This document shows, piece after piece, positions 6,897 through 46,762 of a stretch of DNA of 64,000 bases (positions within the stretch are counted from its first letter, which is position 1; each line of letters begins with the position of its first letter). This stretch comes from an uncultured Phycisphaerales bacterium (lineage in GTDB: Bacteria > Planctomycetota > Phycisphaerae > Tepidisphaerales > Tepidisphaeraceae). Location of the stretch: positions 3,040,001 through 3,104,000 of the forward strand of contig CAVWVQ010000003.1 of NCBI GenBank assembly GCA_963758525.1, in the 5' to 3' direction. Both the position numbers and the translations under genes were made by a program. The notes below the pieces were generated by a model. That model did not search any database. It saw only the letters and a program-made list of their open reading frames with translations, and was not told the DNA's origin.

Positions 6897-8715
6897 TTAA
6901 CGAGCGCTGTTCGCCCTTGAACTGACGCGATGAGGGCCGGCGGAGATCCCGTCAACCATGAGCGTCGCGTTCAACTGCTTTGCCTTCACGACTTTTCCGT
7001 CGAGAATCATGTCGTCGCTGGCGCCAGAGCGGGCGGGCAGCTCAACCGCTGCCGTCGCACCCGGCGGCACTTCAATGTCGAGACTTGCGGTGTCACTGTT
7101 CCACGACACACTCACCGCGCCCCGCGGAGTCGGCACCTTGCCGCGAATCCATTTCAATGCGCCGGGCTGCGGAGCAATGAGAATTTTCGTGTAACCCGGC
7201 TCAAGGGGACGTACGCCCAGGACATAACGCGAAATGATGTTTGCCGGCGCAACCCCACGCATGATTCCAGTCCAAATTGTGTTTGGATGCAGAATCCCAC
7301 GCCTCCAGAGTCATGGTGGAGCCCATTTCCATCATGTGCCACCAGCTGTGCACCGTTTTGGCCGTCATGAGCTGGATGGCGTACTCGTCCTTATCCGCGG
7401 CGAACATCGCCTCGAGCAGATACTGTGCGCCGTAAACGCTGCACGCCATCCCGCGCGATTGCACGAAATCGACGACTTTGGCTCTGCAGGGTTCGGGGAC
7501 AAGTCCGAAAGCCAGCGGAAACATGTTCCCATGAAGCGAATAGTGCGCGCTGCCTTCGCCGTCGGTGTAAAGCCCACGTTCTTTGTTGAAGAAGGCGCGA
7601 TTAAATGACTGGTAAACCTGTTTCGCCTTCGATTCCAACTGAGTCGCGTCGGTTTCCTTGTTCGAAAGCGCGCGAAGCAGCGCCATCTGTTGCAGCGCGT
7701 GATAATAGAATGCGTTTACGGCAGTGTTGTATTCCGGCCCCAACTGGCGACCGCGTTTCTCGCCGGGAAATGACTCATCGCCGCTATATCCGTCGCGGTA
7801 GGCCTTCGGCCAATCCACGATCGCTCCGGCGCGCAGCAGGCCGTCCGCGCGGGCCTTGTCCATCAGCAATTTGGATTTGAGTGCATCCCAGTGATCGCGC
7901 GCCAGTTGGATGTCGCCGGTGGCCATGTAATCTTCGGCGGCAATCATCGGCATGTGGAAGCTCCACTCCGTCGGCCAGGTTGGATGCTGCAGCAAATAGT
8001 CGAACGTGCAGCGGGCCACGCGCGGATCGAGATCGCAGGCATAAAACGAAAGCTGATTGATGTAAGCGTCCGCTTCGTATGGCGTTCGCTCGCGGTCGCC
8101 GTCAATGAAAATGCCAAAAGCCGATGTCGCCTCAATCGTGTGTTTGCAAAGATGCCATACGTTGTTCAGCATCTCGTCCGAACTTTCAAAGCCTGAGGCG
8201 CCGTCATTGAACGGTGCGTGAACGAATAACTGGATCGCGCCGGTCTTTTCCAAGCGCGGCAATGACTCGCCCTCGATTTCCGCGTAACGGAATGGAGCGA
8301 TCTCGCCGAGGCCCGGAGTTGGTTCGGACGCATTTCCCTTTGGATGTTTCACTGCAGGAAGATCGAGTTGATAACCTTGCTTGTCGGGCTGCAGTTTCAA
8401 GGTGCCTTCGCGAAAACTAACGGAGCCGCCCGGGCTGCGGTCGATCGCGCCGCCCGCATCCAACTTTTCGCCCAGGCGCACCTTCAATTCGGCCGGCAGG
8501 TCCGCGCCTGAACCGGACGTGGCAAGATCAATCTTCAAGCTGCCGTAAGCGTCTTCGCCAAAATCGGCGAAATAGACCGCGCCACGTTTCTCGAATCGCA
8601 CTGGCGCAACCGGCGTGATGTCCGGCTTGACGCGCTCGACCGCGACCGCCGAAGACGTCAACAACACGAGGATTGAAATCAGATTCAAGATCGAACGGGA
8701 TATTTGCACACACAA
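6897..8715 (-). CDS. Alpha-L-rhamnosidase-like glycosidase (GH78-related), frameshifted near 7250
   Basis: Signal peptide; FADFG, PFRYAEI, DGDRERTPYEAD, TMTLEAWD, NHAWG; the C-terminal GVRPLEPGY...VPTPRG domain is in the 6897..7262 frame. Confidence 0.85.
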
Positions 8716-8822
8716 CTCCAGTCAACAATCTGTATCTGCGCCGCCCCGGATAATTCAGAGCGGAGTAGTCTGACTCCTGCGACTTCCGCCATTGCGTCTT
8801 CGTTGCGAGTTACCGTGCGTTG

Positions 8823-11411
8823 TCACCGAGTAGCGCTTGATCCATTTGTAGCCGGCGGCGATGACGCCGGATCGGGGTCACCGACCCCGACTACAGTGCT
8901 CGATATCCGCGCCGTCGCCGGCGCCAATCCTTCTCGGGTTGCCGTGAGGGTGATCTCGCCGGGTTGCAAGGTTGAACGAACCGCGACGCGATTGATCCCG
9001 CACTCGGTATTCAGATAGAGATTGTTCGTCGAGTTGGGAATACCGCTGTTATATCCCCCACGCCAGATGGCTGGACCCGTAAGCTTGAAATCCACCCGTG
9101 CTTCATCCGTCGGGCAACGGCGACCTTGCGCATCGACCGCTTCGACATCGAACAGCACAACGTCCTCGCCGTCCGCTTTTAGGCCGCCCGGTCCGGTGAT
9201 CGGCGTCAGTTTCAGACTCTTTGCCGGGCCGGCCGTCTCAATCTTCTGCTGAGCGACCACTTTCCCCGACGAGATAGCGACTGCCTTAATCTCGCCTGGG
9301 ACGAAAACAATTTCCGGGAAGGAATAGATGTAGCCGTCGGTGGGCGTGCTCTGCTTTCCCTTCGACTGTCCGTTAACGAACAGCTCCACGGAGTCGCAAT
9401 GGCTGGCGGCAACATACACGGTCTTGTGTGTGCCCCGGGGGTAGGTCCAATGCCCGATGACGTGTAAGTCGGGAGACTCATTCTGCATCACGCGATAGAC
9501 AAAATAAGCTTCCTTCGGCAGACGGACTGAATCCACTTTCCCACTCACCCGGCAGACCTCGCTGGAGTCCTGACGCCCATCAGCATTCGAATCCGAGAAG
9601 TAGATCGAGGCGTAGCCGGCCCACTTGGAATGAGACGGATCGGTGTTTGAAATCTTGTTCAGTTCGTAGTCGTGATAGCGTGTTGCTGCCGCCAGCGCGA
9701 ACGTCTCTGAATTCAGATGCCAGGTGTCATTCGGTCCCGGCTTGAACCCCATGTGCGGCGGTGAAAAATCGTCCCAGAACCGCCGCGAAGATTCTTCCCG
9801 GAAATCCTCCGCCTCAAGGAACGGCGCGCGATCGCGACGCTCGGCGCTGTAGCCGCGGAACAAGTCGGCCGGGCTTTTCAGCTTGTCGGTGCGCGGATCC
9901 TGGCCGATCATCACGCCGAAGTACTCGGCGATCGGCGTCGCTTCGCGATCGTTGAGCGATCGGCAACCCAACGCGCGGCCGCCATGCGGATCGTATTGTT
10001 TGCGCAGGTCCAGCATCTGCTGCAAGTGTGCGGCGCTGATGTGATTGTTGCCCGCTTCCCAGAACAGGATGCTCGGCTGATTGCGGAAATAGATCATCGA
10101 GTCGCGCATCACCTCCACCCGCTGCTCCCACTGGCGACCCTCAACGTCCCCTTCCTTGTCGCCGGCGGGGCATATTTCCACGATGCCCGCGCGGTCAAGT
10201 GCCTCCACATCCACCCGCTGCGGGGAGGTGTGCATCCACCGAACATAGTTGCCATGACTCGCGCGAATCATCGAAGCGGTCAGATCGTGCATCCATTCGG
10301 GATACGCCTGCCCAAGCCCGGCCCAGTCGTTGACCGAGCGCTGCGCGTACCCTTTGAGGTAGACGAACTTGTCGTTGAGCCAGAGGCCCCCCTTCCCCAC
10401 TCCGCCCCTGAACTCACCCTTGCGAAAGCCGGTCTTTATCCTGCAGACATCGACCGGCTTCCCGTCGACCAGGAGGATGGAATAGACATCGTAGAGATAC
10501 GGATCTTCGACGCTCCAGAAGCGCGCGCCCGTCAACGGACCGCTGGCCGTCACCACGTCCTTTTGCCCATTCACCAGGTCCGATGCTTCACCGCCGAACT
10601 TCGCCCGCACAATTCCCGCGCCATCCACCACGAAGACGTTCAGCGTGATCGATTGATTGTCCGTCTCCTCATTGCAGACCTGCGCCTCGACCGTCACTTT
10701 CGCCGTCTTCGCGGCAACATTGAAGTCCTCCGCATACACGTACACGCCCGTCGTTTTGAGGTTCTCGAATAGCGGAAGCGTCTGATAGACCTTGCCAGTC
10801 AGGTGCAGCCACAATCTTCGATTCAGTCCACCATAATTGGGATTGAACGCACTCCCTTCCCACTCGTAGCCCGTACCGGTTGACTCTTCCTGATAATCCT
10901 TCGAGTTGTCCACCTTGACCGCGAGAACATTCTCCTCGTCACCAAAGCGGGCAAATGGCGTCAGATCGAAGCCCGCGCCGGTGATGCCGTTTTCGCATTT
11001 GCCAACCGGCTGGCCGTTCAGAAAGAACCGGCCGGCCTGTCGCATTCCTTCAGATTCGAGGAAGACTTTCCCACCTTTCGCACTGGCCGGTAGTTTGAAG
11101 TGCCTTCGATACCATCCCACCCCCATGTACTCACCGCTCTTGTCGCCGCTGCTGTGACTGATGAACGAGCGGTAGGTGTCCGTGTCGTTCCAGGTGTGTG
11201 GCGTGCTGACGGTGCTCCACTTGCTGTCATCGAAACTCGCCGCTTCCGCGCCAGGGGCATCGCTGCGCACGAACTTCCAGCCTACGTTAAAATCCAGAGT
11301 TTGCCGTGCCGTCAGCGGCGGGGAGTAGGCCGGTCCTTCCGCCATGGCGGGCCGGAGGAAGCAGACCCAAAGAAAGAGGGCAAAGAGAACTGAAATCCGA
11401 TGCGGTTTCAT
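8823..11411 (-). CDS. Glycoside hydrolase family 2 (beta-galactosidase-like, DUF4982-type)
   Basis: Signal peptide; FNVGWKF, GWYRRHF, YGGLNR, RNQPSILFWEAGN, GHWTYP, VELFVNG, LKADGEDV. Confidence 0.88.
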   Translation of the reverse strand: MKPHRISVLFALFLWVCFLRPAMAEGPAYSPPLTARQTLDFNVGWKFVRSDAPGAEAASFDDSKWSTVSTPHTWNDTDTYRSFISHSSGDKSGEYMGVGWYRRHFKLPASAKGGKVFLESEGMRQAGRFFLNGQPVGKCENGITGAGFDLTPFARFGDEENVLAVKVDNSKDYQEESTGTGYEWEGSAFNPNYGGLNRRLWLHLTGKVYQTLPLFENLKTTGVYVYAEDFNVAAKTAKVTVEAQVCNEETDNQSITLNVFVVDGAGIVRAKFGGEASDLVNGQKDVVTASGPLTGARFWSVEDPYLYDVYSILLVDGKPVDVCRIKTGFRKGEFRGGVGKGGLWLNDKFVYLKGYAQRSVNDWAGLGQAYPEWMHDLTASMIRASHGNYVRWMHTSPQRVDVEALDRAGIVEICPAGDKEGDVEGRQWEQRVEVMRDSMIYFRNQPSILFWEAGNNHISAAHLQQMLDLRKQYDPHGGRALGCRSLNDREATPIAEYFGVMIGQDPRTDKLKSPADLFRGYSAERRDRAPFLEAEDFREESSRRFWDDFSPPHMGFKPGPNDTWHLNSETFALAAATRYHDYELNKISNTDPSHSKWAGYASIYFSDSNADGRQDSSEVCRVSGKVDSVRLPKEAYFVYRVMQNESPDLHVIGHWTYPRGTHKTVYVAASHCDSVELFVNGQSKGKQSTPTDGYIYSFPEIVFVPGEIKAVAISSGKVVAQQKIETAGPAKSLKLTPITGPGGLKADGEDVVLFDVEAVDAQGRRCPTDEARVDFKLTGPAIWRGGYNSGIPNSTNNLYLNTECGINRVAVRSTLQPGEITLTATREGLAPATARISSTVVGVGDPDPASSPPATNGSSATR

Positions 11412-11495: not shown

Positions 11496-12002
11496 TCATT
11501 GGGAAGACGGCATCACCTGAACCAACTTCCGGGTCGATCCGTCAGGGCAGACGGTCCTCTGCGCCTTCTCGTATTCCTTTGCCGTATTCGGCGTCAGCTT
11601 GATCCAGGCAGCGACGCCGGGTCGCTTCACCATCTCATGAAGTTCAACCCTTACGTATCCACGGCGTTCCAACGGCGCGCTTGCAATCTTCTGCCTGTCG
11701 TCCTCGTCGTATCCGGCGAGATAGCTCACAAAAGGCTTCCCATCATCGCATCGATAGACCTCGACGCGATACGCTAGCTTGCCGTTATGATCGAAGGGTG
11801 GAACATTGCCGGCATCGTCCTCGAACCATGTCTTTCCATCATCGTCGGAATAAAAGTCCTTCGCGGTGATGGACGGAAGATTCGCGCCGCTGTGGGAGAG
11901 TTGGCGCCAGATCAGCAGGACGCCGATCACAATCAGCGCGGCGGCGACAATCACCGCGGATGTCCCGTTTTTTGAAAGCAGTCTCCGGATATCCATCGCC
12001 AT
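11496..12002 (-). CDS. Small single-TM protein, prepilin partner copy 1
   Basis: N-terminal TM; FYSDDDGKTWF, VPPFDHNG, CDDG, VKRPG, CPDG shared with ORFs at 29201 and 33632. Confidence 0.85.
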   Translation of the reverse strand: MAMDIRRLLSKNGTSAVIVAAALIVIGVLLIWRQLSHSGANLPSITAKDFYSDDDGKTWFEDDAGNVPPFDHNGKLAYRVEVYRCDDGKPFVSYLAGYDEDDRQKIASAPLERRGYVRVELHEMVKRPGVAAWIKLTPNTAKEYEKAQRTVCPDGSTRKLVQVMPSSQ

Positions 12003-12050
12003 ATTCCCATAACCCAGGATCTGATTTGAATGGAATGATCAGCGTGTCCG

Positions 12051-12995
12051 TCAGGGTAATGTGTCTGGCAGTTCGTTCGTGCCGTACGGGATTCGGTTGT
12101 TGCCGAAAGAGCGTATTCCATAGTTGTTCGCGAAGTCGTAGTTCGCGGACTGGACCATGATGGACTGCTTGAATGGATTCAGTCCGTCGGCCTTTGTCTC
12201 CAAAAAGTCGATGGCTGCGCACGCCTCCCAGACCTGATTGTAACCGTTCGTACCCCAATTGCTCTGGATGTATTGGTACAACTCCCTGCTCTCGACAAAC
12301 TCGACGTGGCCGTCAGTGAAACCCATGTTCCACCCTGCTGATCCAGAGTTGTTCGTGTGAGTGATCGAGTCAGGCCACCAGATGCTGTCGATCACAAGTG
12401 CCCTGTTTCTGGGGAAGGCACTCAACTTTGTAAAGCGTGTTGCGCTGCCATTGGGTCCTGCCCGGAGGTGCGGATTATAAAAGTAACTGGAGACCGCGTT
12501 TGCAGGGGAAGCGGTTGCGCCGGATTGAGTGGAAGGACACCAAAGCCACGGCACATTGGTGTTTGCGCCGTCCACCACCCAGCCGCCGCTTAGATAGCCG
12601 AGCGACACCAACCGGCCAATATTAGCAGTGGTGATGTGCTGCGCCGCGTGGTTATCGTAGTTGTATGAATTGTACCAAGCCCAGGTCTGCGTCCCCAGAG
12701 AACCGATGTCGCCCCAGCCATTGAAGTTGGGGCCTTCCGGACTCGCTTCATTTCGCCATCGCTCAGGCAACCCGCCCTTGTAGTCCAGCGCGTAAGTGAG
12801 GCTGGCCGTTACGATCTGGCGCAAATTGCTTGCACAGGTGATCTGTTGCGCGCTGCGCCGCGCATTGGATAGCGCCGGAAGAAGAATAGAGATGAGCAGC
12901 GCGATGATTCCAATGACGAAAAGCAGTTCGACCAGCGTAAATCCGGTTCGGGATGGTTTTCCGGGTGAAAAACTGAGTCTGCCATCGGCTTTCAT
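12051..12995 (-). CDS. Prepilin-type N-methylation protein (DUF1559/H-X9-DG type)
   Basis: [38 protein letters not shown]-terminal H...NMGFTDGHV. Confidence 0.92.
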
Positions 12996-13040: not shown

Positions 13041-14693
13041 TCAGGGCGTTAGGCGACTAGTTGTCTTCAAAACGGCGTCGGCCAGCATTGTTCCTTCCAT
13101 CAGGCCCCGCCCCGCTTCGGTGATGGCAACGGTGAGGAACCGGTCATCGGGCCGCAGCGCCGCCTCGATCGGAAATGCGCCGTTCACACTCGAGAACGTC
13201 TTCTGGAAGCGCGCTTGGCCATCGACGATGAGGTACAAATTCCCCCTCGGCTGTTTTGAAGCCTCCGGGAAAATGCTGCTTACCAGGCAATGGAAGCTCG
13301 CCAGTGCAATACCTGGGTGCAATCGGCGAATCGCCGCCAGATCCAGGGTCAGGCCGCGGTTGGTAACCATGTAAAGCACGCTGTGCTCCGGGCCGGCGTA
13401 TCGATTCAGCAGCGGCGCGCTCTTGCCCGACAGCGACGGAATGCGCCCGCCGGTACAGATGTTCTGCACGCTCCTGTTGCTGGTGCTGCGGAATGCGAAC
13501 GTATGCAAAGCCGAATCGACCTGTACCGGCCCGTGAGTTCCGTCAGGAATGAAACACCCATCAAGGATCGGCGTGCCGGTGATCCGGTGATAGATGTTGT
13601 CGCCCGCGACATCCCCCACCTGCTCGAACACCCCCACGTGACCCATCGAATCGATGTCCATTCCGCGCCGCCGGGTGGTGCCGTCGCCGCCCGAGATCAG
13701 GTCGACAACGTCCAACGTGGTCGGCTCATCACTCAAATTTCGGACGAATCGTTGCGGCTGCACACCGGCGGGATCGATCTTCAAATCGGTCCCCGTTGCA
13801 TTGGCAGCCTGACCTTCAGTCAGCACCAGAGTGGCTGACGAATTGCCAATTCGCGGCTCAACGCGCACACTTCCCTTGAAGACCTCGATCGCGTCGGATC
13901 CGTCGGCGCTGACCTCCACGCCAAATTCCGTACCCAGATCGACGACTCGCGTGATAGCTGTTTCAACTGCGAAACCGACAGCGGCGGGCGGCACTTTCGC
14001 CGTAAGCTGACCTGCAGTCAGCTCGACAGCGTTGGCGGCCCGGACTTGGAACCGCGCCGGCGCCTCAACGACCATCGTGGCGCCGGTGTCGAATTTGATC
14101 TCGGCGACACCGCTTTCCAGAACCAGCGGCGTTGCGGGCAGTCGTTGGTCCGCCTGAAGCGCGCCGGTCGTGCCGCTCCATTGTGCATTGACACTTGATG
14201 CGACGGTCGCGAAGGAGCGCGGCCGGGCAATCTGCCAATAAATCGCAAGACCAGCCAGCAGTGGGATCATGATCGAGGCGGCCCAGAGCCAGCGGGATCG
14301 AAGGATGCGAAGTGATCGTGCCGGCGGCACGATAACGGTAGCCGCCGGCAGCGCCGACTGAGTTTCGTCACGTTCGGGCTCAGGATTCAGCGCCGGTAGA
14401 ATCATCGACTCATTGAAATCAACACGTCGCGGCCATTCCGGCAAGTCATCTAGCTTGGTTTGGTCCCCCGCGGGGCCACTGCCGGTGCTGGCGCCTTCCG
14501 AAACCGCTTCAATCAGGGCCGACCCGGTGAGACATAATCGAACAAATGCCGCGCGCTTGGCGGGATCTGTTCTGAGCTGCGCCTGGAGCTTCTCAACGCC
14601 ATCCGTGCCAAGTTCGCCCTCCAGGTAGCAAAGCGACAAGCGCAGGAACTCGGGGTCTGCTTCCGAGAGACGGGCGGGGGGCTGTTTAGACAT
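13041..14693 (-). CDS. FecR-family anti-sigma factor with C-terminal NPCBM/NEW2-like domain
   Basis: N-terminal anti-sigma helix, TM, FecR core (VVDLGTEFGV, EVFKGSV), C-terminal LDLAAIR...DRFLTVAITE; overlaps the sigma stop codon. Confidence 0.88.
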   Translation of the reverse strand: MSKQPPARLSEADPEFLRLSLCYLEGELGTDGVEKLQAQLRTDPAKRAAFVRLCLTGSALIEAVSEGASTGSGPAGDQTKLDDLPEWPRRVDFNESMILPALNPEPERDETQSALPAATVIVPPARSLRILRSRWLWAASIMIPLLAGLAIYWQIARPRSFATVASSVNAQWSGTTGALQADQRLPATPLVLESGVAEIKFDTGATMVVEAPARFQVRAANAVELTAGQLTAKVPPAAVGFAVETAITRVVDLGTEFGVEVSADGSDAIEVFKGSVRVEPRIGNSSATLVLTEGQAANATGTDLKIDPAGVQPQRFVRNLSDEPTTLDVVDLISGGDGTTRRRGMDIDSMGHVGVFEQVGDVAGDNIYHRITGTPILDGCFIPDGTHGPVQVDSALHTFAFRSTSNRSVQNICTGGRIPSLSGKSAPLLNRYAGPEHSVLYMVTNRGLTLDLAAIRRLHPGIALASFHCLVSSIFPEASKQPRGNLYLIVDGQARFQKTFSSVNGAFPIEAALRPDDRFLTVAITEAGRGLMEGTMLADAVLKTTSRLTP

Positions 14694-15210
14694 GCTCTCC
14701 ACCTTTCAGTGCGATCTGTCTGGAAACGCAATCAGCCAGCACCGCGTAAATCCGGCTGAATGTCGTGTAGAGACTCACCACCGGGCGATTTAACTCCTTT
14801 GCCAGATCGGCGTACTTGGCCTTTTCAGTATATCGTCGGTGGATGAGGCCACGCGCGTTGGGAGGGAGTCTGTCCACGCACCGCCGCATGGCGGCGGCCA
14901 TCAGCTCACTGTCGTCCTGATCGTGTCCCTCCCATTCCACTTCCAGGGCTTCCATGAGATCGTCGTCGAGCGAAAGATGGCGCTGCCCCTGTTGGCGAAG
15001 CACGTTCAACGCCCGCAGTCGGGCCGCGGTCCGCAGCCAGTTGAGAAAATGTCCCTCATCGCGAATGCTGTCGCGCTTTTCGATCGCCAGCACGCAGATG
15101 TCCTGAAAGACGTCCTCCGCCAGCTCGTAGCGCCGGACCATCGACCGGATAAAGGCCAGGACCTTCACCCGCTCGGAAACCAGAAGTCGAACTAGCTGGT
15201 CCTCTTTCAT
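14686..15210 (-). CDS. ECF sigma-70 factor (divergon 1)
   Basis: AEDVFQD, FLNWLRTAAR (region 2); CVDRLPPNARGLI...LADCV (region 4). An upstream TTG start (15252) is possible. Confidence 0.92.
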   Translation of the reverse strand: MKEDQLVRLLVSERVKVLAFIRSMVRRYELAEDVFQDICVLAIEKRDSIRDEGHFLNWLRTAARLRALNVLRQQGQRHLSLDDDLMEALEVEWEGHDQDDSELMAAAMRRCVDRLPPNARGLIHRRYTEKAKYADLAKELNRPVVSLYTTFSRIYAVLADCVSRQIALKGGEHV

Positions 15211-15598: not shown

Positions 15599-15637
15599 TG
15601 TGACAGTTTGGCCATGCCGCGCAGATATCCCATTGAA
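15599..15637 (+). promoter_or_regulatory. Candidate ECF promoter motif B upstream of PEP-CTERM gene 1
   Basis: tgtgacagtttggccatgccgcgcagatatcccattgaa, 36/39 identical to 38242-38280. Confidence 0.6.
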
Positions 15638-15787
15638 GGCCAGAGGTGGCGGATCTCGGTCCGTATGGAGCGCGGAGCATTAGACGTAACGACACCGCGC
15701 CCGTGGCCGGCAGGTGAGCGGCTGGAACGCCCGCACAAGACGGAATGGATGCGCCTGCCTTATGGCGGGGCGACTGGAGAGAGGATC

Positions 15788-19078: not shown

Positions 19079-19125
19079 CCGATGCTAGACGCAAAGATCG
19101 TCAGGGTGCGTGACGCCGCATTGAA

Positions 19126-19311
19126 GTGGCATGGGCATCCTGCCCATGGCCGCGGTACCCGCGGCGTTGGCCGGTACTCCGGCCAAACAAGCAGGAGCGC
19201 AGCGATCTTTTTGCTCTCAAAAGTAGAGGACGCTCCGCTCGGGCGTGTTCGACCGGAGTACCGGCCGATGTCGCGGTGTACCGCGACCATGGCGCAAGAT
19301 GCCCATGACAC
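19126..19311. repeat. 186-bp REPIN/MITE-like palindrome, copy 1
   Basis: Ends gtggcatgggcatcctgcccatgg / ccatggcgcaagatgcccatgacac with long complementary arms; homologous to 44053-44238. Confidence 0.85.
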
Positions 19312-19557
19312 CGTTTGTGCCGCCGAATCCGTCACGCACCCAGATCGTCAAGCCATAGAATGAAACTCAAGCTTACTGCCGACGTAGCGTTTCGGCCGGC
19401 AGGGCCGGCATCCTCGCGGGGTATTTGTTCGTCGTGACCTGCCCGCCGGCGCGCGCGGCGTTCGGACTCACTTCGGACACCGGCCATTATTCCCGCGATA
19501 CTGGAGCCGGCCTGGCCTTCAAGATCGACCGGCTCAACTGATGTATCGCCAATTCCA

Positions 19558-22222: not shown

Positions 22223-22232
22223 GTCACCTGAT

Positions 22233-29653: not shown

Positions 29654-29658
29654 GGCAA

Positions 29659-35441: not shown

Positions 35442-35520
35442 TGTCAGATTCCTGACCGCGATGGGATCAGACGACATTGGGTCTCCCTCCGCCTTTCCTG
35501 CTCAACATCCCTGCATCAGC

Positions 35521-37152: not shown

Positions 37153-37249
37153 TACATAACCTCGCGCGATCACGCGCTTCCAAAAACCGTTTAGCGGCTG
37201 CCCTCGGGGCAGCGTGCTTCTGGCACGTGTGCGTCATCGCGCACGTTCA

Positions 37250-37774
37250 TCAGATGCTCCTGGAACTGTGAAGCTTCCGCTCGACACAATTCCGCAAGGC
37301 CGCACGGAGCCGGCACATCGCCATCTTTGCCGAGCTGACGCTGGTGCGCAGCGCCTGGGCCACTTTTTCGTAACGCAGGTCGTCGACATACCGCAACTGC
37401 AGAAGTTTCTGAGTCTTCGGCGAGGCCTGTTTCATGCAGGCCTGCAGCGCCTCCAGCAGCGGCCCTGGATCCTCTACCTCCGCGGCAAAAGCTTCGCCGA
37501 TCCGATCGCAACTGTCGTCGTCAAAGAATTGCTGATAGGTGGCCTGTCGCCGGCGGTAGGCGAGCAGCTCATTGCGTGCAATCCCAATCGCCCAACCAGA
37601 AAATGGCCGGGCGGGGTCGTACTCCGAGTACTTTCGCACCACCACCATCGCGATGTCCTGCAGAATGTCGTGCGCGTCGTGGAAGTCATTGGTCATGGAA
37701 CGGACGTAGGCTGCCACCGAAGGCAGGCATGCGGTCCATTGCCGGGCTACTTCTTCCTTGGAATCCAACGCCAA
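37250..37774 (-). CDS. ECF sigma-70 factor (divergon 2)
   Basis: DAHDILQD, YDPARPFSGWAIGIARN, LQACMKQ...LRYVDD...RLRAALRNCV. Confidence 0.93.
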   Translation of the reverse strand: MALDSKEEVARQWTACLPSVAAYVRSMTNDFHDAHDILQDIAMVVVRKYSEYDPARPFSGWAIGIARNELLAYRRRQATYQQFFDDDSCDRIGEAFAAEVEDPGPLLEALQACMKQASPKTQKLLQLRYVDDLRYEKVAQALRTSVSSAKMAMCRLRAALRNCVERKLHSSRSI

Positions 37775-38408: not shown

Positions 38409-41400
38409 ATGACGAGGAACAATCGCGCACTTTCGACACCTGCCAACCGCAAGTCGGATTCATTACGGACTCGGACTCAATCAGAACTCCGTCGTCGGCG
38501 GCTGACCTGCGCTTGTGCGGCCATTGCTGCTGGGTCGGCGGGCCTGAGCTCGCTTATCGCCCGCGCGGCCAGTAACGACGCCTGGGGCACGGCGCCCTCC
38601 AGCCAAAACTTTAGCGGCACGAATTGGACAACCGGAACGACAACTCCGGGCGCAAACACGGGGAGCGCCGCCAGCGGCGACGCCCTATATTTTGGCAATT
38701 CGACGATTACGACCCTCAACAACGATGACTCGAACTATTCGTTTTCGGGTCTCATTTTCAACGCGGGTGCGGCGGCGGGGTTCACCATCAACGGCAACAG
38801 CTTTACCCTGACTGGTAATGTCACCAATAGCAGCACCAATCTTGAGGCAATCAATGCCCCAATTGCGACGATCGCCGCCCGCACCTTTACGATGACTTCG
38901 GGCGGAGGCAACATCAGCCTCGGCGGCAATATCAGTGGCACGGGCGGCGGGCTGACACTGGCGGGCACCGGGGTGCTGGCCCTCTCCGGTTCCAACTCCT
39001 TTACGGGAGTCGTTAGCATCGGCTCCACTGCCACGCTCCAGTTACAGGCCAATTCCAGCAACACTGCCAGCGGAATTTCCAGCGTGCTGCCCACGCAGAA
39101 TATGCTAATCGCGGCGCTCCCCTCCGGTGCGACCATTCAGTTGCGCGCGGATAGCTCGATTGCCTCCAATGGCGTCGTCGCTTTCGACAGTGGCGCCACC
39201 ACCTTTGGCAATAGCGGGGCCGGTCTCAAACTCACCGGCAACCTGAACTTCGACGTCAATCAGTTGACGACCGGTTCGGTCCCGACAACGTTGCAGTTCG
39301 GCGCAACCAGCGCCGTCTGGCAGGTTGGGACAGGCACGACCACATTTAACGTGACGGGCGGTGCTGGTTATTCTTTGCAAATAGGCTCTCTCAATGTTGG
39401 TAATAATCAGGCTGTCGTTTTCAATCCGACCACCGCCAACATGATCGTCGGAGCAATCGGCAACACGTCAGGAACCATTACCAAAAACGGTGCCGGCACG
39501 CTCACGCTCAACGGCAACAATAGCTACACTGGCAATACCGTAGTCAGCGCAAGCGCAGGCATCCTCATCCTGAGCGGCGCCAACAATAATGGCGCTATCG
39601 CCACGACTACGGTGAACAATGGCGCGACGCTGCAATTGCAGGCCAACAACGGCAATACCTCCAACTTCACCACCGCGTCCACGGCGCTCGGAACGGCCTC
39701 AGGCAAGCTGGCCCTGAACGATGGATCGACGCTGCAACTGCGTTCCGACACCAGTGTGACCTTTAACGGAACCGACAACCTCCCCAGCCTCAACAGCAAG
39801 ACGATCACGATCGATGTGAATAATATCACGGCCGGTACCACCAACGGTGTCAGCAACTTAGGAACCCCCCAAGGCCGGACCCTGAGCCTGGCCACCGCCA
39901 CAACCGGCCTCGGCTCGACCGGCCAATTCAACATCACTGGCGGCGACGGCTACACCCTGGCCTTCGGCCCGCTTGCCGCTGCCAATGGAACCGGCCAAAC
40001 CTGGACCTTCAATCCGACCAGCGCGTCGGCCACCATCGCCAGCTACACCAGTAATGTGTCGGTGGCTTCCAATACACTCGCGCTTGCCGGCACCTCGACG
40101 GGCAACGCTGTCCTGGGCGCGATCACCAATGGCTCGGCAACAGCCATTGCCGTGACCAAATCCGGTACCAGTACATGGACCCTCGGCGGAACGAACACCT
40201 ATACCGGCGCTACGACCGTCAACGGCGGCACGCTGAACATCACCGGCTCGACCGGCTCGGGATCGGCGGTCGCGGTCAACGGCGGCGGTACTCTCAGCGG
40301 TACCGGCACGGTCGGCGGCGCGGTGACGGTCGCCGGCGGCACTTCATCGTCCACGTACGGCACGATCAGCGTGGGACAAGGCCCCTTGACCTTAAGCAGC
40401 CTCACCCTGGGTGGAAGCACCAACAGCTCGAACAGCAATTTCTCCCAATTGAACCTTGCGACAGCGACCGGCAATACCTCGGCAGCCGAAATCGCTGTCA
40501 CCGGCGCTCTCACCACAAACAACGCGGGCGCCACCATTACCATCAATCCTGCGGGCATCGCTGGCGGCCAAACCTACGAACTGGTAAGCTTCAGCGGCAG
40601 CGGGACTTACGACGGCTCGGCTTTCGCCACGGGAAGCGGCCAGTCGTCGATCGACGGGTTCACCCTCAGTACTTCCAACCCGAGCTTTGGCGTCAGCGAC
40701 TCGCTGACGGTAACCGCCGCCAGCAACGGCCTCCTCGAACTGGTCACGACCGGCCAAACCTATGCGAACCTCTGGTGGTATGGCAACCTGGGCACGGCAT
40801 GGAACGCCAACAACGGATCGATCGGCAACTTCACCCAGGATGCGGCGGGAACCACGCCCGCCCAGGCCCTTCCCAGCAGCGGCACCACGGTCAACTTCTC
40901 GGCCACCGGCGCGAATAACACGGGCCCCATCACCCTGGGCCAGGCCTTCACCATCGCGGGCCTCAATTTCCTCGCCGCGGACACCAATTCAGCCGCCTTC
41001 CCCGCGATCAACATCACCGATTCCAGCAACAGCCTGACGATCGGGACCAGCACCGGCATCACCGACGCCAATAATGCCGGAGTGACGTTGTCCGTGCAGA
41101 ACTTGATTCCCAGCGTGTCCCAAACCTGGACCAACAGCTCCGGGGCCCTCTTCACCATCGGCAACGTCGCGGGACCTGGAACAGCAGGAACCACGACATT
41201 AACTCTCACCAACAGCAGCAGCGGCGGGACGACCATTAGCGGCGTGATCGGCAACGGCACGCCTTCCGGCGCCTTGGCCCTCATCGTCAAGAATACCGGC
41301 GCGGGCGTGACCACCCTCTCCAATACGAATAATACCTACAGCGGCGGCACCACCCTGAACGGAGGCACTTTGACTTCCGCGGTGACCGGCGGCTTCGGGA

Positions 41401-44051
41401 CAGGCTTCGTGACAGTCACTCCGACGGGCATGACGAACAATGCGGCGGACAATGCGACCCTGAACACCACGGGCAGCATCGCTTCCTCAGCGGCAGTCAC
41501 GGTCAATTCGGAAGCGAACGATGGCGGCTTCGGCATCGGCACAATCAACTTCAACAGCACAACGCCGACGATTGCCAGCCTGTCGGGCAACGGCAGCGTG
41601 GTGCTTAACAATGCCGGCGGCACGACGCTGACAGTGAGCGGCGGCGGGACTTTCTCCGGCGCGATCAGCCAGGGCAACGGCGGAACCGGTAGCCTGACCA
41701 TATCTGGCGGCACGCTGACCTTGTCCGGCGCAAACGCTTACACGGGCACGACTTCGGTCACGGCCGGCACCCTCAGCCTCACCGGTTCACTGACCAGCAA
41801 TGTCTCGACCAGCAGCACCGGCGTAGTCACGGAAAGCAGCGGCGGAGTCATCGGCGGTGCCAGCGCAACCTTTACGCAAGGCAGCCCCGGCAAAACGTCG
41901 ACTCTCGCGGGCGCCAACAGCTACGGCGGCACGACGACGGTCAGCACGGGTACGTTAGTCCTTTCAGGCAGCAACAGTTCGTCGGGGGCGACGACGGTGT
42001 CCGGGGGAACACTGCAATTGGCCAACACGGCGAGCGATGGCGGCCTGGCCAGCGGCACCCTAAGCCTGAGCGGCGGCACACTCCAGGCCACCGTGGCGGT
42101 TCCCTCCATCACGAATGCGGTCTCCCTGACGGCCAACAGCACGATATCGGGATCTCAAGCCCTGACGCTGGCCGGTGTGCTTACCAACTCGGGCGCCAGT
42201 TCGACCCTCACGGTGAATAATTCGGCCGCCACCGCGATCACCGGCGGCAATGTCTATCTGTCGGAGGCAACCGGCACGGGCCGGACGCTCACGATCAACG
42301 GCTCGGGCGCCGTCACGATTGGCGACGCTATCGCGAATTACAGCGGCGGGGCGGGCACGGCCAGCGCGCTGACCTACAGCGGCAGCGGCACTCTAACGCT
42401 CTCGGGCAACAACAGTTATACGGGCAATACGTCGGTCACCACAGGCATCCTCGTCCTGAGCGGGGCCAACAGCAACGGCTCTTCCGCCACGACTTCGGTA
42501 AGCAATGGCGCGACGCTCCAATTGCAGGCTAACAACAGCAATATCACGTCAAACGCTTCTTCCGCGCTCGGCACCGGTTCAGGCAAGCTGGCCCTGAACG
42601 ATGGATCGACGCTGCAACTGCGTTCCGACACCAGCGTGACCTTTAACGGCACGGACGCCCTCGGCGGCCTCAATGGCAGGACGATCACGATCGATGTGAA
42701 TAATATCACGGCCGGTACCGCCAACGGTGTCAGCAACTTAGGAACCCCCCAAGGCCGGACCCTGAGCCTGGCCACCGCCACAACCGGCCTCGGCACGACC
42801 GGCCAATTCAACATCACTGGCGGCGACGGCTACACCCTGGCCTTCGGCCCGCTTGCCGCTGCCAATACAAGCGGCCAAACCTGGACCTTCAATCCGACCA
42901 GCGCGTCGGCCACCATCGCCAGCTACACCAGTAATGTGTCGGTGGCTTCCAATACACTCGCGCTTGCCGGCACCTCGACGGGCAATGCTGTCCTGGGCGC
43001 GATCACCAATGGCTCGGCAACAGCCATTGCCGTGACCAAATCCGGCGCCAGCACCTGGACGCTCTCTGGTGCAAATACGTATTCCGGCGGGACAACGATT
43101 GCCGGCGGCACGCTCGCTTTGTCCCCGGCTTCGGGCACCAACAACATCGGGTCTTCCAAGTTCATCAACGTCGGCAGCGGAGCCTTCTTCAACGTCACTG
43201 CCGTCAACGGAACCGCGAACAACAGTTTCGCGTTGAACGGCACGCAAACCCAAACCACCAGCCAGATCCTCGGCGGCGTCGGCACTGTGACCGGAGCGGT
43301 TGCGATCGCCAACGGAGCGACGCTTTCCGCCGGCACCAACAGCGGCACGGGAAAGGTGAATGTCGTCAGTTCCCCCGCGAGTTCCACGCTGGTTCCCGCC
43401 ACCGGCAGCACGGATACCATCGGCACGCTGAACACTGGCAACCTGACCTTGGGAGCCGCCACCGGCGCGAGCGGAAATCTGGCTGTTAAGATTTCCGACA
43501 TGCCTTCGTCCGGAACTCCGACCGCGGGCGCCGCTGGCACCAACTATGATACGGTGGCCGCGCAAACGATCACCGTGCCCTCTAATTCGCCAACACCGCC
43601 GGCAAACCCCTTCAACGTGCAACTGCTGGGGTACGGGAAGGTCTCCAGCGTCGTGACGGCAAATGCCGCCTCGGCGAATTTTAATCCGGCTTCCACCTAT
43701 GTCTGGCAGATCGCCTCGTACACCTCCACCAATATTCCCGGAGCCGCCGACGGCACGACCGTCATCCTGACCAGCGGCGGTGGCCAGAGTCCCGTGACGA
43801 CGGGGTCGAACTCGGTCGCGGGTCTGTTCAGCCTCGACACCAGCGGTTTTGCCAGCGCGAACTCAATCCCCGGAGCCCAGCAGGGCGCGTTCTATCTGGA
43901 AGACGTTGGAACCACTGGCACCGCCGGAACATTGGACGTGGTCTACAACGCCACGCCGGAGCCGGGCACGGCGATGCTGCTGCTGGCTGGGGGATTACCG
44001 ATGCTGGTCGCTCGTCGCCGCCGTCGAAAGGCGGTCGCGGACGCAAGTTGA
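38409..44051 (+). CDS. PEP-CTERM surface protein 2 (1880 aa) with autotransporter-associated beta-strand repeats
   Basis: Arg-rich leader similar to protein 1; many LTLSGxNxYTGxTxV repeats; C-terminal ATPEPGTAMLLLAGGLPMLVARRRRR. Confidence 0.93.
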   Translation: MTRNNRALSTPANRKSDSLRTRTQSELRRRRLTCACAAIAAGSAGLSSLIARAASNDAWGTAPSSQNFSGTNWTTGTTTPGANTGSAASGDALYFGNSTITTLNNDDSNYSFSGLIFNAGAAAGFTINGNSFTLTGNVTNSSTNLEAINAPIATIAARTFTMTSGGGNISLGGNISGTGGGLTLAGTGVLALSGSNSFTGVVSIGSTATLQLQANSSNTASGISSVLPTQNMLIAALPSGATIQLRADSSIASNGVVAFDSGATTFGNSGAGLKLTGNLNFDVNQLTTGSVPTTLQFGATSAVWQVGTGTTTFNVTGGAGYSLQIGSLNVGNNQAVVFNPTTANMIVGAIGNTSGTITKNGAGTLTLNGNNSYTGNTVVSASAGILILSGANNNGAIATTTVNNGATLQLQANNGNTSNFTTASTALGTASGKLALNDGSTLQLRSDTSVTFNGTDNLPSLNSKTITIDVNNITAGTTNGVSNLGTPQGRTLSLATATTGLGSTGQFNITGGDGYTLAFGPLAAANGTGQTWTFNPTSASATIASYTSNVSVASNTLALAGTSTGNAVLGAITNGSATAIAVTKSGTSTWTLGGTNTYTGATTVNGGTLNITGSTGSGSAVAVNGGGTLSGTGTVGGAVTVAGGTSSSTYGTISVGQGPLTLSSLTLGGSTNSSNSNFSQLNLATATGNTSAAEIAVTGALTTNNAGATITINPAGIAGGQTYELVSFSGSGTYDGSAFATGSGQSSIDGFTLSTSNPSFGVSDSLTVTAASNGLLELVTTGQTYANLWWYGNLGTAWNANNGSIGNFTQDAAGTTPAQALPSSGTTVNFSATGANNTGPITLGQAFTIAGLNFLAADTNSAAFPAINITDSSNSLTIGTSTGITDANNAGVTLSVQNLIPSVSQTWTNSSGALFTIGNVAGPGTAGTTTLTLTNSSSGGTTISGVIGNGTPSGALALIVKNTGAGVTTLSNTNNTYSGGTTLNGGTLTSAVTGGFGTGFVTVTPTGMTNNAADNATLNTTGSIASSAAVTVNSEANDGGFGIGTINFNSTTPTIASLSGNGSVVLNNAGGTTLTVSGGGTFSGAISQGNGGTGSLTISGGTLTLSGANAYTGTTSVTAGTLSLTGSLTSNVSTSSTGVVTESSGGVIGGASATFTQGSPGKTSTLAGANSYGGTTTVSTGTLVLSGSNSSSGATTVSGGTLQLANTASDGGLASGTLSLSGGTLQATVAVPSITNAVSLTANSTISGSQALTLAGVLTNSGASSTLTVNNSAATAITGGNVYLSEATGTGRTLTINGSGAVTIGDAIANYSGGAGTASALTYSGSGTLTLSGNNSYTGNTSVTTGILVLSGANSNGSSATTSVSNGATLQLQANNSNITSNASSALGTGSGKLALNDGSTLQLRSDTSVTFNGTDALGGLNGRTITIDVNNITAGTANGVSNLGTPQGRTLSLATATTGLGTTGQFNITGGDGYTLAFGPLAAANTSGQTWTFNPTSASATIASYTSNVSVASNTLALAGTSTGNAVLGAITNGSATAIAVTKSGASTWTLSGANTYSGGTTIAGGTLALSPASGTNNIGSSKFINVGSGAFFNVTAVNGTANNSFALNGTQTQTTSQILGGVGTVTGAVAIANGATLSAGTNSGTGKVNVVSSPASSTLVPATGSTDTIGTLNTGNLTLGAATGASGNLAVKISDMPSSGTPTAGAAGTNYDTVAAQTITVPSNSPTPPANPFNVQLLGYGKVSSVVTANAASANFNPASTYVWQIASYTSTNIPGAADGTTVILTSGGGQSPVTTGSNSVAGLFSLDTSGFASANSIPGAQQGAFYLEDVGTTGTAGTLDVVYNATPEPGTAMLLLAGGLPMLVARRRRRKAVADAS
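39699..43045 (+). repeat. Near-identical intragenic direct repeat (39699-40165 vs 42579-43045)
   Basis: Same sequence at an exact offset of 2880 nt, with few substitutions. Confidence 0.92.
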
Positions 44052-44052
44052 T

Positions 44053-44238
44053 GTGGCATGGGCATCCTGCCCATGGCCGCGATACTCCGCGGCGTTGGTC
44101 GGCACGCTGGCCAACCAGCAGGAGCGCAGCGATCTTCTCCGTTCCCCAAGCAGAAGAACGCTGCGCTCGGGTTTGTTCGACCGGAGTACCGATCGATGTC
44201 GCGGGGTACCGCGACCATGGGCAAGATGCCCATGCCAC
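44053..44238. repeat. 186-bp REPIN/MITE-like palindrome, copy 2
   Basis: gtggcatgggcatcctgcccatgg ... ccatgggcaagatgcccatgccac, starting 2 nt after the PEP-CTERM stop. Confidence 0.87.
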
Positions 44239-44311
44239 GAACGCCGCCGCGCTCGCGCTGAATCCGTGATGCGCGCCGGCCCGGGTCACCGCTGTGTTTT
44301 GAGGTTTTGCC

Positions 44312-45367
44312 ATGTCTCGACAACGGGGATTATATATTCTTGATCCGAACTCCTTCGGGCTGATCTATGGCCCCGATGAGCAACGCGACATTGCGGCGCA
44401 CGTGGAGATCACGGCTGCGCCCCTCTCGGCACGCGAGGCGCTCGCCCGGCCGGAGCTACTGGCAGAAGCGGATGTGATCTTCTCCGGCTGGAAGGGGCCG
44501 ATGCTCGACGATGCGTTCTTCGCCGCCGCTCCAAAACTCAAGGCCATTTTCTACGGCGCGGGCTCGATGGGGTACATCCTCACTCCGGCCGTCTGGGAGC
44601 GGGGCATCGTCGTGACCAGCGCGCTGGAAGCCAACGCGGTTCCCGTCGCTGAGTACGCGCTGGCAACGATTCTCTTTTCTCTCAAGCACGGGTGGAAGCT
44701 GGCCAGGATGACAAAGGCCGGCCGCTGCCACCCCGGTCGGGATCACGTCCCCGGTTGTTACGGGAGCACGGTGGGATTGGCTTCGCTGGGGGCGATTGCC
44801 CGGAAGTTGCTGGAGTTGCTGCGGCCATTTGACTTGAATGTGCTCGTGTACGACCCGTTCCTTGCCGAGCATGACGCGGCGGCGCTGGATATCGAGCTGG
44901 TCTCACTGGACGCCATTTTCCAGCGAGCCGACGTGGTGTCGCTGCACACGCCGATTTTTCCCGAAACATTCGGGATGATCACCGGCGATCACCTCGACAG
45001 CATGAAGCCCGGAGCGACGTTCATCAACACCGCGCGCGGGGAACTGGTGCGCGAGGACGAGATGATCGAGGTTCTCTCCCTGCGGCCGGATCTGCAGGCG
45101 GTGCTGGACGTGACGTTTCCCGAACCTCCCGCAGCCGATTCACCGCTCTATACCCTTGAGAACGTCGTGCTCACGCCGCACATCGCTGGATCGGCCGGCA
45201 ACGAGTGTCGGCGGATGGGGCGATGCATGGTCGAGGAATTGGAGCGCTACCTGTCGGGCGAGCCCCTCAAGTATGCGCTGACGGAGAACTCGGTGCTGCG
45301 ATCATCGCATCGGCCGCTGGGGGCGCCCATTCCGCCCGCAGCGCGACAGCCGGCAATGGCGCTCTGA
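44312..45367 (+). CDS. D-isomer-specific 2-hydroxyacid dehydrogenase
   Basis: NAVPVAEY, GLASLGAIAR, VSLHTP, FINTARG, LDVTFPEP, TPHIAGS. Confidence 0.93.
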   Translation: MSRQRGLYILDPNSFGLIYGPDEQRDIAAHVEITAAPLSAREALARPELLAEADVIFSGWKGPMLDDAFFAAAPKLKAIFYGAGSMGYILTPAVWERGIVVTSALEANAVPVAEYALATILFSLKHGWKLARMTKAGRCHPGRDHVPGCYGSTVGLASLGAIARKLLELLRPFDLNVLVYDPFLAEHDAAALDIELVSLDAIFQRADVVSLHTPIFPETFGMITGDHLDSMKPGATFINTARGELVREDEMIEVLSLRPDLQAVLDVTFPEPPAADSPLYTLENVVLTPHIAGSAGNECRRMGRCMVEELERYLSGEPLKYALTENSVLRSSHRPLGAPIPPAARQPAMAL

Positions 45368-45505: not shown

Positions 45506-45514
45506 GGAAGCGAA

Positions 45515-46762
45515 ATGCATATCCTCGTGATGGCGCTTGCATGCCTGATGGCGGGCGATTTGGTCTCGGTTGCCTCCGCCGCTGGTCCTGACACGGCCGC
45601 TGGCGAGACGCCGCAAGCACTCCAAGAGGCATCACCGCAGGCCGTGCGAAAGGCGGGCCCTTTTGTTCATCCGGGCTTGCTGAGCACCGAACAAGACTTT
45701 CGGCGGATGAAGGCCATGGTGGATGCGGGGCGCGAGCCTTGGAAATCTGACTGGGAGAAGCTGATCGCCAACCCGCATGCCTCCCTCAAATGGGAGCCGC
45801 GTCCGGCCCAGGTCATTTACCGGGGAAAAGCAAGAGGTCAGACGGCGAGGGAAAACTATGTGCAGTTATACCGGGATACGGCCACGGCCTACTCATTGGC
45901 GTTGAGGTGGCGCATTTCCGGAGATCCCGCGTATGGGCGCCAGGCGGTGGTGGTTCTCAATGCGTGGGCTGCAACGCTGACGAAGATTTCCGGCGATTCG
46001 AATGCCTGCCTGGCCCTCGGCATTTATGGGTACCAATTCGCCTGCGCCGCCGAGATCATGCGCACCTTTGACGCTTGGGATCGACAGGATTTTGCCCGAT
46101 TCCAGGAAATGATGCTGCGGGTGTTCTACCCGGCCAACTCCGATTTTCTCATTCGCCACAACAACACCAAGATCGACCATTACTGGTGCAACTGGGACGC
46201 CTGCAATATGTGCTCCATGCTCGCCATCGGGGTGCTCTGCGACAAGCGGCCGATCTATGACGAGGCCGTGGATTATTTCAAGCATGGAAAGGGAAACGGG
46301 GCAATCGAGCAAGCAGTTTATTTCATTCATCCAGACGGTCTTGGCCAATGGCAGGAGAGCGGGCGCGATCAGGCCCACACCATGATGGGAGTTGGTCTGC
46401 TGGCAACTTTCTGCCAGATGGCCTGGAACCAGGGGGATGATCTATATGGGTACGACAACAATCGTTTGCTGTCGGGCGCCGAGTATGTCGCAAAGTACAA
46501 CCTGGGCGAAGACGTCCCCTATCAAACTTACAAGAACAGCCTCGCGACTCAGCCGGAGATCAGCTCGTTCGGCAGGGGCGGCCAGCGGCCGATATGGGAA
46601 ATCCTCTACAACCATTACGTGAAGCTCAAGGGACTGCCCGCGCCGTACGTAACCCGGGCCGCCGAATCCGTCCGGCCCGAAGGCGGCGCCGGGGATTATG
46701 GCCCGAACAGCGGCGGTTTTGACATGCTCGGGTATGGCACGCTGACCTTCACGTTGAACTAG
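45515..46762 (+). CDS. Alginate-lyase-family ((alpha/alpha)n toroid) secreted protein
   Basis: FVHPG, HYWCNWD, GQWQESGRDQAH, AEYVAKYNLG, GYGTLTF. Confidence 0.85.
   Translation: MHILVMALACLMAGDLVSVASAAGPDTAAGETPQALQEASPQAVRKAGPFVHPGLLSTEQDFRRMKAMVDAGREPWKSDWEKLIANPHASLKWEPRPAQVIYRGKARGQTARENYVQLYRDTATAYSLALRWRISGDPAYGRQAVVVLNAWAATLTKISGDSNACLALGIYGYQFACAAEIMRTFDAWDRQDFARFQEMMLRVFYPANSDFLIRHNNTKIDHYWCNWDACNMCSMLAIGVLCDKRPIYDEAVDYFKHGKGNGAIEQAVYFIHPDGLGQWQESGRDQAHTMMGVGLLATFCQMAWNQGDDLYGYDNNRLLSGAEYVAKYNLGEDVPYQTYKNSLATQPEISSFGRGGQRPIWEILYNHYVKLKGLPAPYVTRAAESVRPEGGAGDYGPNSGGFDMLGYGTLTFTLN

Follow-up and report, generated by a model that had tools for sequence, protein, structure and literature searches.

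A repeated glycan cluster of a planctomycete with pilin-like genes in the place of SusC/SusD

Polysaccharide utilization loci (PULs) of Bacteroidota combine an extracytoplasmic function (ECF) sigma factor and an anti-sigma factor with the SusC/SusD pair. In a 64-kb stretch of the genome of an uncultured Phycisphaerales bacterium (contig CAVWVQ010000003.1; hereafter the window, in which all positions are counted unless prefixed C3), we found a PUL-like cluster that has pilin-like genes instead of SusC and SusD. Homologous sequences carry names that indicate Tepidisphaeraceae. The arrangement is real, repeated and partly conserved. Open reading frame (ORF) calling and family scans recovered two ECF/FecR units, three pairs of a prepilin-like protein and a small membrane protein that we call the partner, two PEP-CTERM repeat proteins and eight glycan enzymes (Table 1), so that, as in SusC/SusD-type PULs, carbohydrate-active enzymes (CAZymes) are clustered with a regulator. 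Our best overall reading, to which we give an even chance, is of glycan clusters that arose by duplication and whose pilin head holds the polymer at the cell.

The original prediction described one architecture built twice, and every part that it named is present where it had been placed. In unit 1, a PEP-CTERM gene on the plus strand, followed by a polysaccharide lyase (PL) family 4 gene, is divergent from a series that runs ECF, FecR, prepilin, partner, glycoside hydrolase (GH) family 2 and GH78. In unit 2, the second PEP-CTERM gene is divergent from ECF, FecR with an NPCBM domain, a prepilin with a LamG head, partner and GH78, and this series continues with the third prepilin and partner pair, GH35, GH78 and a GH63-like gene. 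Some details of the prediction stood only in part. A FecR-NPCBM protein had been proposed for both units, which the Pfam match bears out for FecR 2, while FecR 1 has no Pfam match to NPCBM despite 49% identity to its counterpart. Lyase genes do come after the PEP-CTERM genes, with a dehydrogenase gene intervening before the alginate-lyase-family gene of unit 2, and two of the three GH78 genes are broken across two frames. Between the units, at an offset of about 22.5 kb, sequence identity is 71–85% for the FecR genes, the 5′ leaders and the beginnings of the PATR repeat genes. Because the units share DNA at this offset, their sequences suggest that they most likely have a common origin by one duplication, and a separate double origin was rejected.

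Scans of 23 ORFs from the region detected no TonB barrel, SusD, ATP-binding cassette (ABC) or major facilitator superfamily (MFS) domain, which agrees with the original prediction on SusC/SusD, TonB-dependent receptors and both transporter classes. The source genome has seven TonB-barrel matches, all outside the window. One of these receptor genes, and not a pilin gene, is the one behind the sole cobalamin riboswitch of the genome. SusD (PF07980) has no match in this genome, which is 90.9% complete, with a control query that was positive in B. thetaiotaomicron. Nothing in Rfam matched between positions 6000 and 48000.

The regulators account for part of this absence. We found 11 FecR and 34 ECF genes in the source genome using iterated profiles, no match to FecR_C (PF16344) and no cognate TonB-dependent receptor nearby; the anti-sigma factors end in NPCBM or LamG-like domains. 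The FecR and NPCBM combination provides the single-transmembrane FecR-like anti-sigma factor at position +1 with an extracytoplasmic carbohydrate-binding domain that defines ECF46. Because these anti-sigma factors lack FecR_C and have a sugar-binding domain of their own, no receptor is needed for signalling, and its absence is partly expected; this does not account for the absence of an importer. A pilin lies within 4.5 kb of all 11 FecR genes, compared with 5.1% of other genes that have one within 5 kb, and this proximity exceeds chance, with the FecR genes being paralogues rather than independent cases. Pilins were also found within 5 kb of FecR at six of nine loci of the same family, at 4 of 11 in one relative (G040) and at none of 20 in another (G031). 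No partner is near FecR at 40 loci of relatives, several of which are cut off by the end of a contig. What follows FecR in G040 is mostly a gene for a LamG/Ig protein, and in G031 mostly one for a galactose-oxidase-like protein. A fragmented record labelled Verrucomicrobiae (L150, label unconfirmed) has the order ECF, FecR, partner, pilin, partner. As a separate observation, G031 holds at least 34 ECF/FecR pairs, and a large galactose-oxidase-like protein comes next in 11 of 19 loci scanned.

Table 1. Features of the glycan cluster in the window, with four insertion sequence copies outside it
Feature	Position	Strand	Evidence and remarks
GH78 alpha-L-rhamnosidase, two frames	6897..8715	-	Catalytic 7201-8715, C-terminal domain 6897-7262; PF17389 E 2e-41, PF17390 E 1e-17
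GH2 beta-galactosidase-like, signal-peptide-like N-terminus	8823..11411	-	PF02837, PF00703, PF02836; GalA model under cut-off
Partner 1, single-pass membrane protein, small beta-rich domain	11496..12002	-	Model; one Asp-box-like motif, two cysteines
Prepilin 1 (N_methyl + DUF1559), large variable head	12051..12995	-	PF07963, PF07596 over cut-off
FecR-like anti-sigma factor 1	13041..14702	-	PF04773; 49% identical to FecR 2, homologous C-terminal region
ECF sigma factor 1, Rhodopirellula/Verrucomicrobium family	14686..15210	-	TIGR02989 124.7 bits, cut-off 124.55
Shared 5′ leader DNA	15599..15669, second copy 38242-38312	+	85% identical repeat; only these two copies in genome
PEP-CTERM surface protein 1, PATR repeats	15788..19078	+	PF12951, TIGR02601; PEP, hydrophobic stretch and Arg cluster read directly
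Long hairpin behind PEP-CTERM gene 1	19095..19350	+	-171 kcal/mol, z -14
PL4 rhamnogalacturonan-lyase-like protein	19558..22242	+	PF14683, PF14686
GH63/MGH1-like hydrolase, twin-arginine-like N-terminus	22411..23796	-	PF22422, PF03200; sequence
GH78 alpha-L-rhamnosidase, intact	23928..26624	-	Five GH78 domains
GH35 beta-galactosidase	26621..29086	-	PF01301 E 3e-52
Partner 2	29201..29671	-	34% identical to partner 1
Prepilin 2	29659..30738	-	PF07963 over cut-off, PF07596 under cut-off
GH78 alpha-L-rhamnosidase	30836..33620	-	Likely leader 33417-33620, body 30836-33502 in different frame
Partner 3	33632..34123	-	34% identical to partner 1
Prepilin 3, LamG (concanavalin-A-like) head	34182..35477	-	PF07963; PF13385 27.9 bits, cut-off 27.6
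FecR-like anti-sigma factor 2, C-terminal NPCBM	35521..37173	-	PF04773, PF08305
ECF sigma factor 2	37250..37774	-	TIGR02989 127.8 bits
PEP-CTERM surface protein 2, PATR repeats	38409..44051	+	PF12951, TIGR02601, TIGR02595 over cut-off
Long hairpin behind PEP-CTERM gene 2	44062..44300	+	Related to first copy
D-2-hydroxyacid dehydrogenase	44312..45367	+	PF02826
Alginate-lyase-family protein	45515..46762	+	PF05426 E 5e-19
IS110 copies, outside window	C3:2706497-2708196, 3871507-3873206, 4128498-4130197, 4130672-4132371

Each of the three prepilins carries the class III cleavage motif, including Glu at +5, and scores over cut-off for both PF07963 and TIGR02532. The DUF1559 model PF07596 scores 24.2 against a cut-off of 23.3 in pilin 1 and 18.6 in pilin 2, with no match in pilin 3, and the H-X9-DG model TIGR04294 has seven matches in the genome, none of them in the window, where pilins 1 and 2 show a DGH motif that resembles it. 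The structure model of pilin 1 has a long N-terminal helix (residues 21–71), and its best 15 matches in VIA are all type IV pilins or pseudopilins (top Z 5.2, root-mean-square deviation 3.4, 123 aligned), so that the predicted fold is that of a type IV pilin; Foldseek returned no match at E ≤ 0.001. A LamG head is carried by pilin 3 of the window and by 3 of the 61 other pilins, these three all lying beside a partner, and neither the head of pilin 3 nor the FecR alignment has a sequence match in the PDB. The source genome holds 68 pilin-like frames, or 54 when machinery clusters and matches without the motif are dropped. These pilins are orphans; assembly machinery is located elsewhere in the genome, in a full type II secretion system (T2SS) cluster, one that is PilB/PilT/PilC-like and one further cluster (named from gene order and motifs). 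Relatives have between 8 and at least 64 pilins per genome (41 of 41 genomes).

Four pilin genes (29659-30738 and 34182-35477 in the window, C3:4929957 and C3:3889852) have, upstream of the true cleavage motif and in frame with it, a second prepilin-like motif that is degenerate, and some of them also carry copies of a short genome-wide repeat. In addition, all four copies found in the genome of a 1.7-kb IS110 element interrupt pilin-like genes at their prepilin cleavage motif, and two of these genes belong to a pilus machinery cluster. The end of the element provides a basic leader that is in frame and precedes the hydrophobic helix, which suggests that this IS110 targets class III signal sequences.

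The connection between these pilins and glycans was assessed at 16 loci chosen by pilin similarity alone from the best entries of the pilin scan of the relatives, with genome G004 skipped. All eight loci that align to pilin 1 over at least 158 residues, found in four genomes, have GH-, PL- or carbohydrate esterase (CE)-type genes within 6.5 kb. Their enzymes are mostly directed at pectin or uronate (PL4, PL8, PL10, PL11, PL22, PcRGLX-like, pectate-lyase-like and GH115). Such genes are present at two of the seven loci that align only in the N-terminal helix, and at the remaining locus the pilin was not called. A partner was found at none of the 16. The glycan link thus belongs to the pilin head and not to the partner, which the original prediction had placed, with the pilin, in the SusC/SusD slot. 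We rejected a SusD-like binder role for the partner because of this absence and because it stands alone in most relatives. The general claim that pilin-like genes occur in glycan clusters without a TonB-dependent receptor was borne out here and in relatives, with some heads being lectin-like; no TonB-receptor domain was found in four sets of 95, 91, 75 and 59 neighbour proteins, of which the long ones were scanned over their first 700–1000 residues.

The partner is a protein of 150–170 residues that we found to be widespread. Partner 1 has no Pfam or NCBIfam match, and its model (predicted local distance difference test score 89.9) has one membrane helix (residues 13–37) and a small beta-rich domain. 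Structure searches with this model gave no Foldseek match at E ≤ 0.001, a best VIA Z of 2.8 and only unnamed clusters in the ESM Atlas, while the matches to PDB sequences (best E 0.005) were confined to the Asp-box-like motif; this is no proof of a new fold. A first search recovered 493 homologues, with no Pfam domain among the best 120 of them, and the family has 2,877 representatives at 50% identity. Among 121 aligned members, 117 have a hydrophobic or transmembrane segment, 110 the Asp-box-like motif and 102–103 each of the two cysteines. The prepilin motif is present in none of the 121, and the possibility that the partner is itself a pilin was rejected.

Iterated profiles identified 28 partner genes in the source genome, the 28th being a fragment. 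Among the 27 full-length ones, a pilin is located within 2.5 kb upstream in 24, downstream in two and in neither direction in one. Partner similarity tracks pilin-head similarity (18 pairs, r 0.40, p 0.0005), and because the two correlate, partner and pilin are seen to duplicate as a unit, which is not proof of co-evolution. The partner is found in 23 of 24 genomes of the same family (the exception is G004), mostly in one to three copies and at most seven. When the best 14 candidates per genome were scored, it was also found in at least 4 of 250 genomes from across the phylum, all four in the same class. At the 20 best-match loci of relatives, the 19 full-length partners have no pilin within 2.5 kb. 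Many of these stand-alone copies share a conserved neighbourhood beside a gene with PfkB and CTP transferase domains, which we take to be HldE-like. Relatives have 20 further partner loci with 23 copies, and all but one of these copies are accompanied by a pilin within 2.5 kb, which is upstream in 14 cases, downstream in 3 and on the opposite strand in 5. The partner tree is a quick tree with 29 open branches, from which no order of events was drawn. Since relatives have one partner for dozens of pilins, and by analogy with TfpY, we infer that the partner is probably an assembly helper used in common, of which some copies have become dedicated, rather than a binder specific to one substrate. 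A complex prediction for pilin 1 and partner 1 scored 0.15 against a mark of 0.32 and was not used as evidence.

Other observations on the partner concern its surroundings. In relatives (L071, L072 and L079), the stand-alone partner lies between the HldE-like gene and small conserved genes, and the source genome has the same neighbourhood at C3:2339518-2341386 with the partner missing. The partner domain also occurs in long frames of 1244 (L073, genome G013) and 608 residues (L085, genome G021), which are possible fusions.

The original prediction had asked for a test of whether the pairs are statistically linked to CAZymes. We discarded a first genome-wide test with an odds ratio of 6–9 as circular, since its queries came mostly from partner loci. 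Queries taken solely from other genomes define 16 CAZyme clusters in the source genome, and a partner is present within 10 kb of four of them, against a null mean of 1.0 (p 0.008). We also compared 18 other partner regions with 18 random 20-kb regions, using proteins of at least 280 residues and E-value limits of 1e-6 and 1e-8 in the test scans and 1e-10 and 1e-8 in the control scans. In this comparison, 15 of 95 genes near partners and 10 of 143 at random are CAZymes (p 0.050; 14 of 95 for the test set at 1e-10). The enrichment near partners is real but modest. In relatives, glycosidases are present at 9 of the 20 further partner loci (GH31, GH9, GH10, GH2, GH53, GH130, GH88 and GH127), which often also hold LacI or AraC regulators and transporters of the ABC or MFS type; the scan covered 91 of 94 large proteins.

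In the capture reading, the FecR-type anti-sigma factor would sense periplasmic oligosaccharide through its own sugar-binding domain. The oligosaccharide would free the ECF sigma factor, leading to the probable joint production of exported pectin-type enzymes, the PEP-CTERM protein, a pilin variant and its helper. The pilin would then be built, probably with the help of the partner, into a filament common to the cell, either the type IV pilus or that of type II secretion, and once in the filament its head would likely bind the polymer. Several results weigh against this reading. Apart from the borderline gene count given above, the proportion of regions with CAZymes is 5 of 18 in both the partner and the random sets, and 12 of the 16 independent clusters have no partner nearby. 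Counting proximity to any pilin, 4 of the 16 qualify against a null of 1.9 (p 0.08), and none of 57 genes within 5 kb of a partner matches the independent queries. The head-to-substrate link comprises eight loci of related genomes and could be inflated by shared locus ancestry, and the heads of pilins 1 and 2 match no lectin fold in family and structure searches. The partner, as noted, does not behave as a SusD counterpart. Finally, the pilin and partner had been predicted to fill the SusC/SusD slot, and a pilin does follow FecR in both units; because pilin presence varies and other secreted proteins occupy this position in relatives, the slot is a regulated output position rather than a fixed transporter slot.

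The links of the partner to other genes are stronger than its link to CAZymes. PATR genes are found in 11 of 18 partner regions compared with 1 of 18 random ones (p 0.0009), and dehydrogenase genes in 6 of 18 compared with none (p 0.019), so that export or adhesion fits these data as well. In the export alternative, the pseudopilin, with or without the partner, is a periplasmic cargo-specific piston or adaptor of the T2SS that pushes enzymes or PEP-CTERM proteins out, and the products enter by porins and inner-membrane carriers. Its strongest neighbour link is the PATR/PEP-CTERM one (12 of the 13 such proteins of the genome are encoded within 10 kb of a pilin); the genome has a full T2SS, the window enzymes have Sec- or Tat-like leaders, and a pseudopilin of an enzyme cluster has been interpreted as part of T2SS export in the available text of PMC13274419. 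Against it, four pilins have LamG heads, and the homologues of the pilin 1 head adjoin unrelated enzyme folds for one substrate class, which fits a choice of ligand better than a choice of cargo. We consider export possible, though on the doubtful side. Unlikely, in our estimate, is the most specific form of capture, in which orphan DUF1559-type pilins are the substrate-specific tips of a retractile filament that imports polysaccharide through a secretin, with the partner as tip-selecting loader and the whole as the SusC/SusD counterpart.

An adhesion or surface-variation cassette would make the pilin, partner and PATR adhesin a mobile, ECF-controlled surface kit with the glycosidases as passengers and no substrate role for the pilin. 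The equal region-level counts favour this, as do the lack of a CAZyme at no fewer than 10 of the 18 other partner loci of the genome, the high diversity of the heads and the pilin genes that are short or broken by IS110. We regard it as improbable in view of the polysaccharide-type enzymes at every one of the eight head-homologue loci, the independent cluster test and the PUL-like layout in several genera. A signal relay, in which the pilin substitutes for the TonB-dependent transducer and carries a signal from outside to FecR, agrees with the position of a pilin near all FecR genes and directly after FecR in both window units, yet is very improbable given anti-sigma factors that lack FecR_C and end in their own NPCBM or LamG-like domain, the absence of pilins at FecR loci of G031 and the LacI/AraC control of most pilin clusters in relatives.

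The PEP-CTERM proteins have the PEP motif, transmembrane helix and basic tail expected of exosortase substrates, and the source genome has two exosortases. The leader shared by their genes was considered as a regulon motif and rejected, as it was found only at these two window genes. The hairpins behind them, about 200–250 bases long, are related to each other and have strong matches at these two sites only. Seven other close paralogues of the dehydrogenase in the source genome each have a pilin and a partner no more than 6 kb away, and members of this subfamily often sit between the PEP-CTERM gene and the pilin. Outside the cluster, two transglutaminase-like genes and a proteasome-type protease adjoin its left edge (3950-6892), and an IS5-family transposase remnant marks the right edge (47167-47592). 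Further right, an operon (51591-60556) encodes HlyD-like, GAF-HlyD, M50 peptidase-like, short SecA-like and squalene-hopene-cyclase-like proteins with a frame break near 55400. Elsewhere in the genome, C3:1780145-1800044 (L056) holds GSU0053/GSU0054-type CRISPR-Cas genes together with Cas3 and Cas1.

Like Bacteroidota PULs, the locus has an ECF sigma factor and an anti-sigma factor resembling FecR at the head of glycosidases and lyases that are exported and act on one class of glycan; unlike them, it has a pilin, a partner and a PEP-CTERM protein, and no SusC, SusD or FecR_C. It also differs from FecI/FecR/FecA signalling, as neither FecR_C nor a cognate TonB-dependent transducer was found. 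The closest described regulators are those of ECF46, a planctomycete group with a single-transmembrane FecR-like anti-sigma factor at +1 that carries a carbohydrate-binding domain and has a rhamnosidase in its context (PMC7826278, in the portion available). The domain there is LamG compared with NPCBM in the window, and 'pilin' does not occur in the available ECF46 supplement text. The N_methyl and DUF1559 (SBP_bac_10) proteins of Planctomycetota have been described, in the accessible parts of PMC10632474 and PMC4807772, as dozens of paralogues with no assigned function. The window pilins share their class III leader and DUF1559 segment, and differ from the published family, as far as those parts describe it, in being tied to a partner, in having some LamG heads and in a head subfamily that tracks pectin/uronate loci.

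The partner layout is analogous to that of TfpY-type accessories, without a sequence or fold link. TfpX, TfpY and TfpZ (FimB) are non-pilin membrane proteins with a periplasmic domain that promote assembly of their pilin, and have three N-terminal transmembrane helices according to the available text (PMC11841053), in contrast to one in the partner model. In Akkermansia, a PVC bacterium, a type IV-like pilus of MUL2 has been linked to glycan attachment and uptake (PMC13174399); this is a single conserved machinery locus with PilM and an archaeal-type pilin, unlike the many orphan pilins beside enzymes found here. Strains of P. limnophila with only pilQ deleted have been reported (PMC11958385). 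Our search, mostly of open-access literature, found no published account of the partner or of a pilin and partner cassette, a nameless family being hard to search for. In the portions available, PMC11266412 does not mention 'pili', and PMC1569441 and PMC13514998 contain nothing on pilins.

Whole-polysaccharide uptake and DUF1559 function are stated as open in the available parts of PMC12673574, PMC11131199 and PMC10632474, the second of which calls the import mechanism of Planctomycetota unknown. The locus offers testable parts for these questions, namely pectin/uronate-tracking heads, LamG heads, an inducing switch and the partner family, and either capture with import or cargo-specific export would give these families a function. 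In Verruconatronum alginivorum (Verrucomicrobiota), one of 67 pseudopilin paralogues belongs to an alginate-induced enzyme cluster (PMC13274419), a placement comparable to that in the window. That pseudopilin was read as T2SS export, with TonB systems proposed for uptake, and the available text mentions neither a partner nor ECF/FecR. Dextran binds pili-like fibres (PMC5394234, as available), and the 'fishing rod' proposal holds that pili made of dedicated pilin-like proteins attach to polysaccharide and draw it into the periplasm (PMC5394234, PMC12078418 and PMC12673574). In the parts available, and unlike here, these papers name no genes, and the review calls mechanisms and players unknown; if the tip-and-loader form of capture were true, the present clusters would name the genes behind such uptake. 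Capture of polysaccharide by pili has therefore already been published as an idea, to which we add an undescribed partner family and a link between pilin head and substrate.

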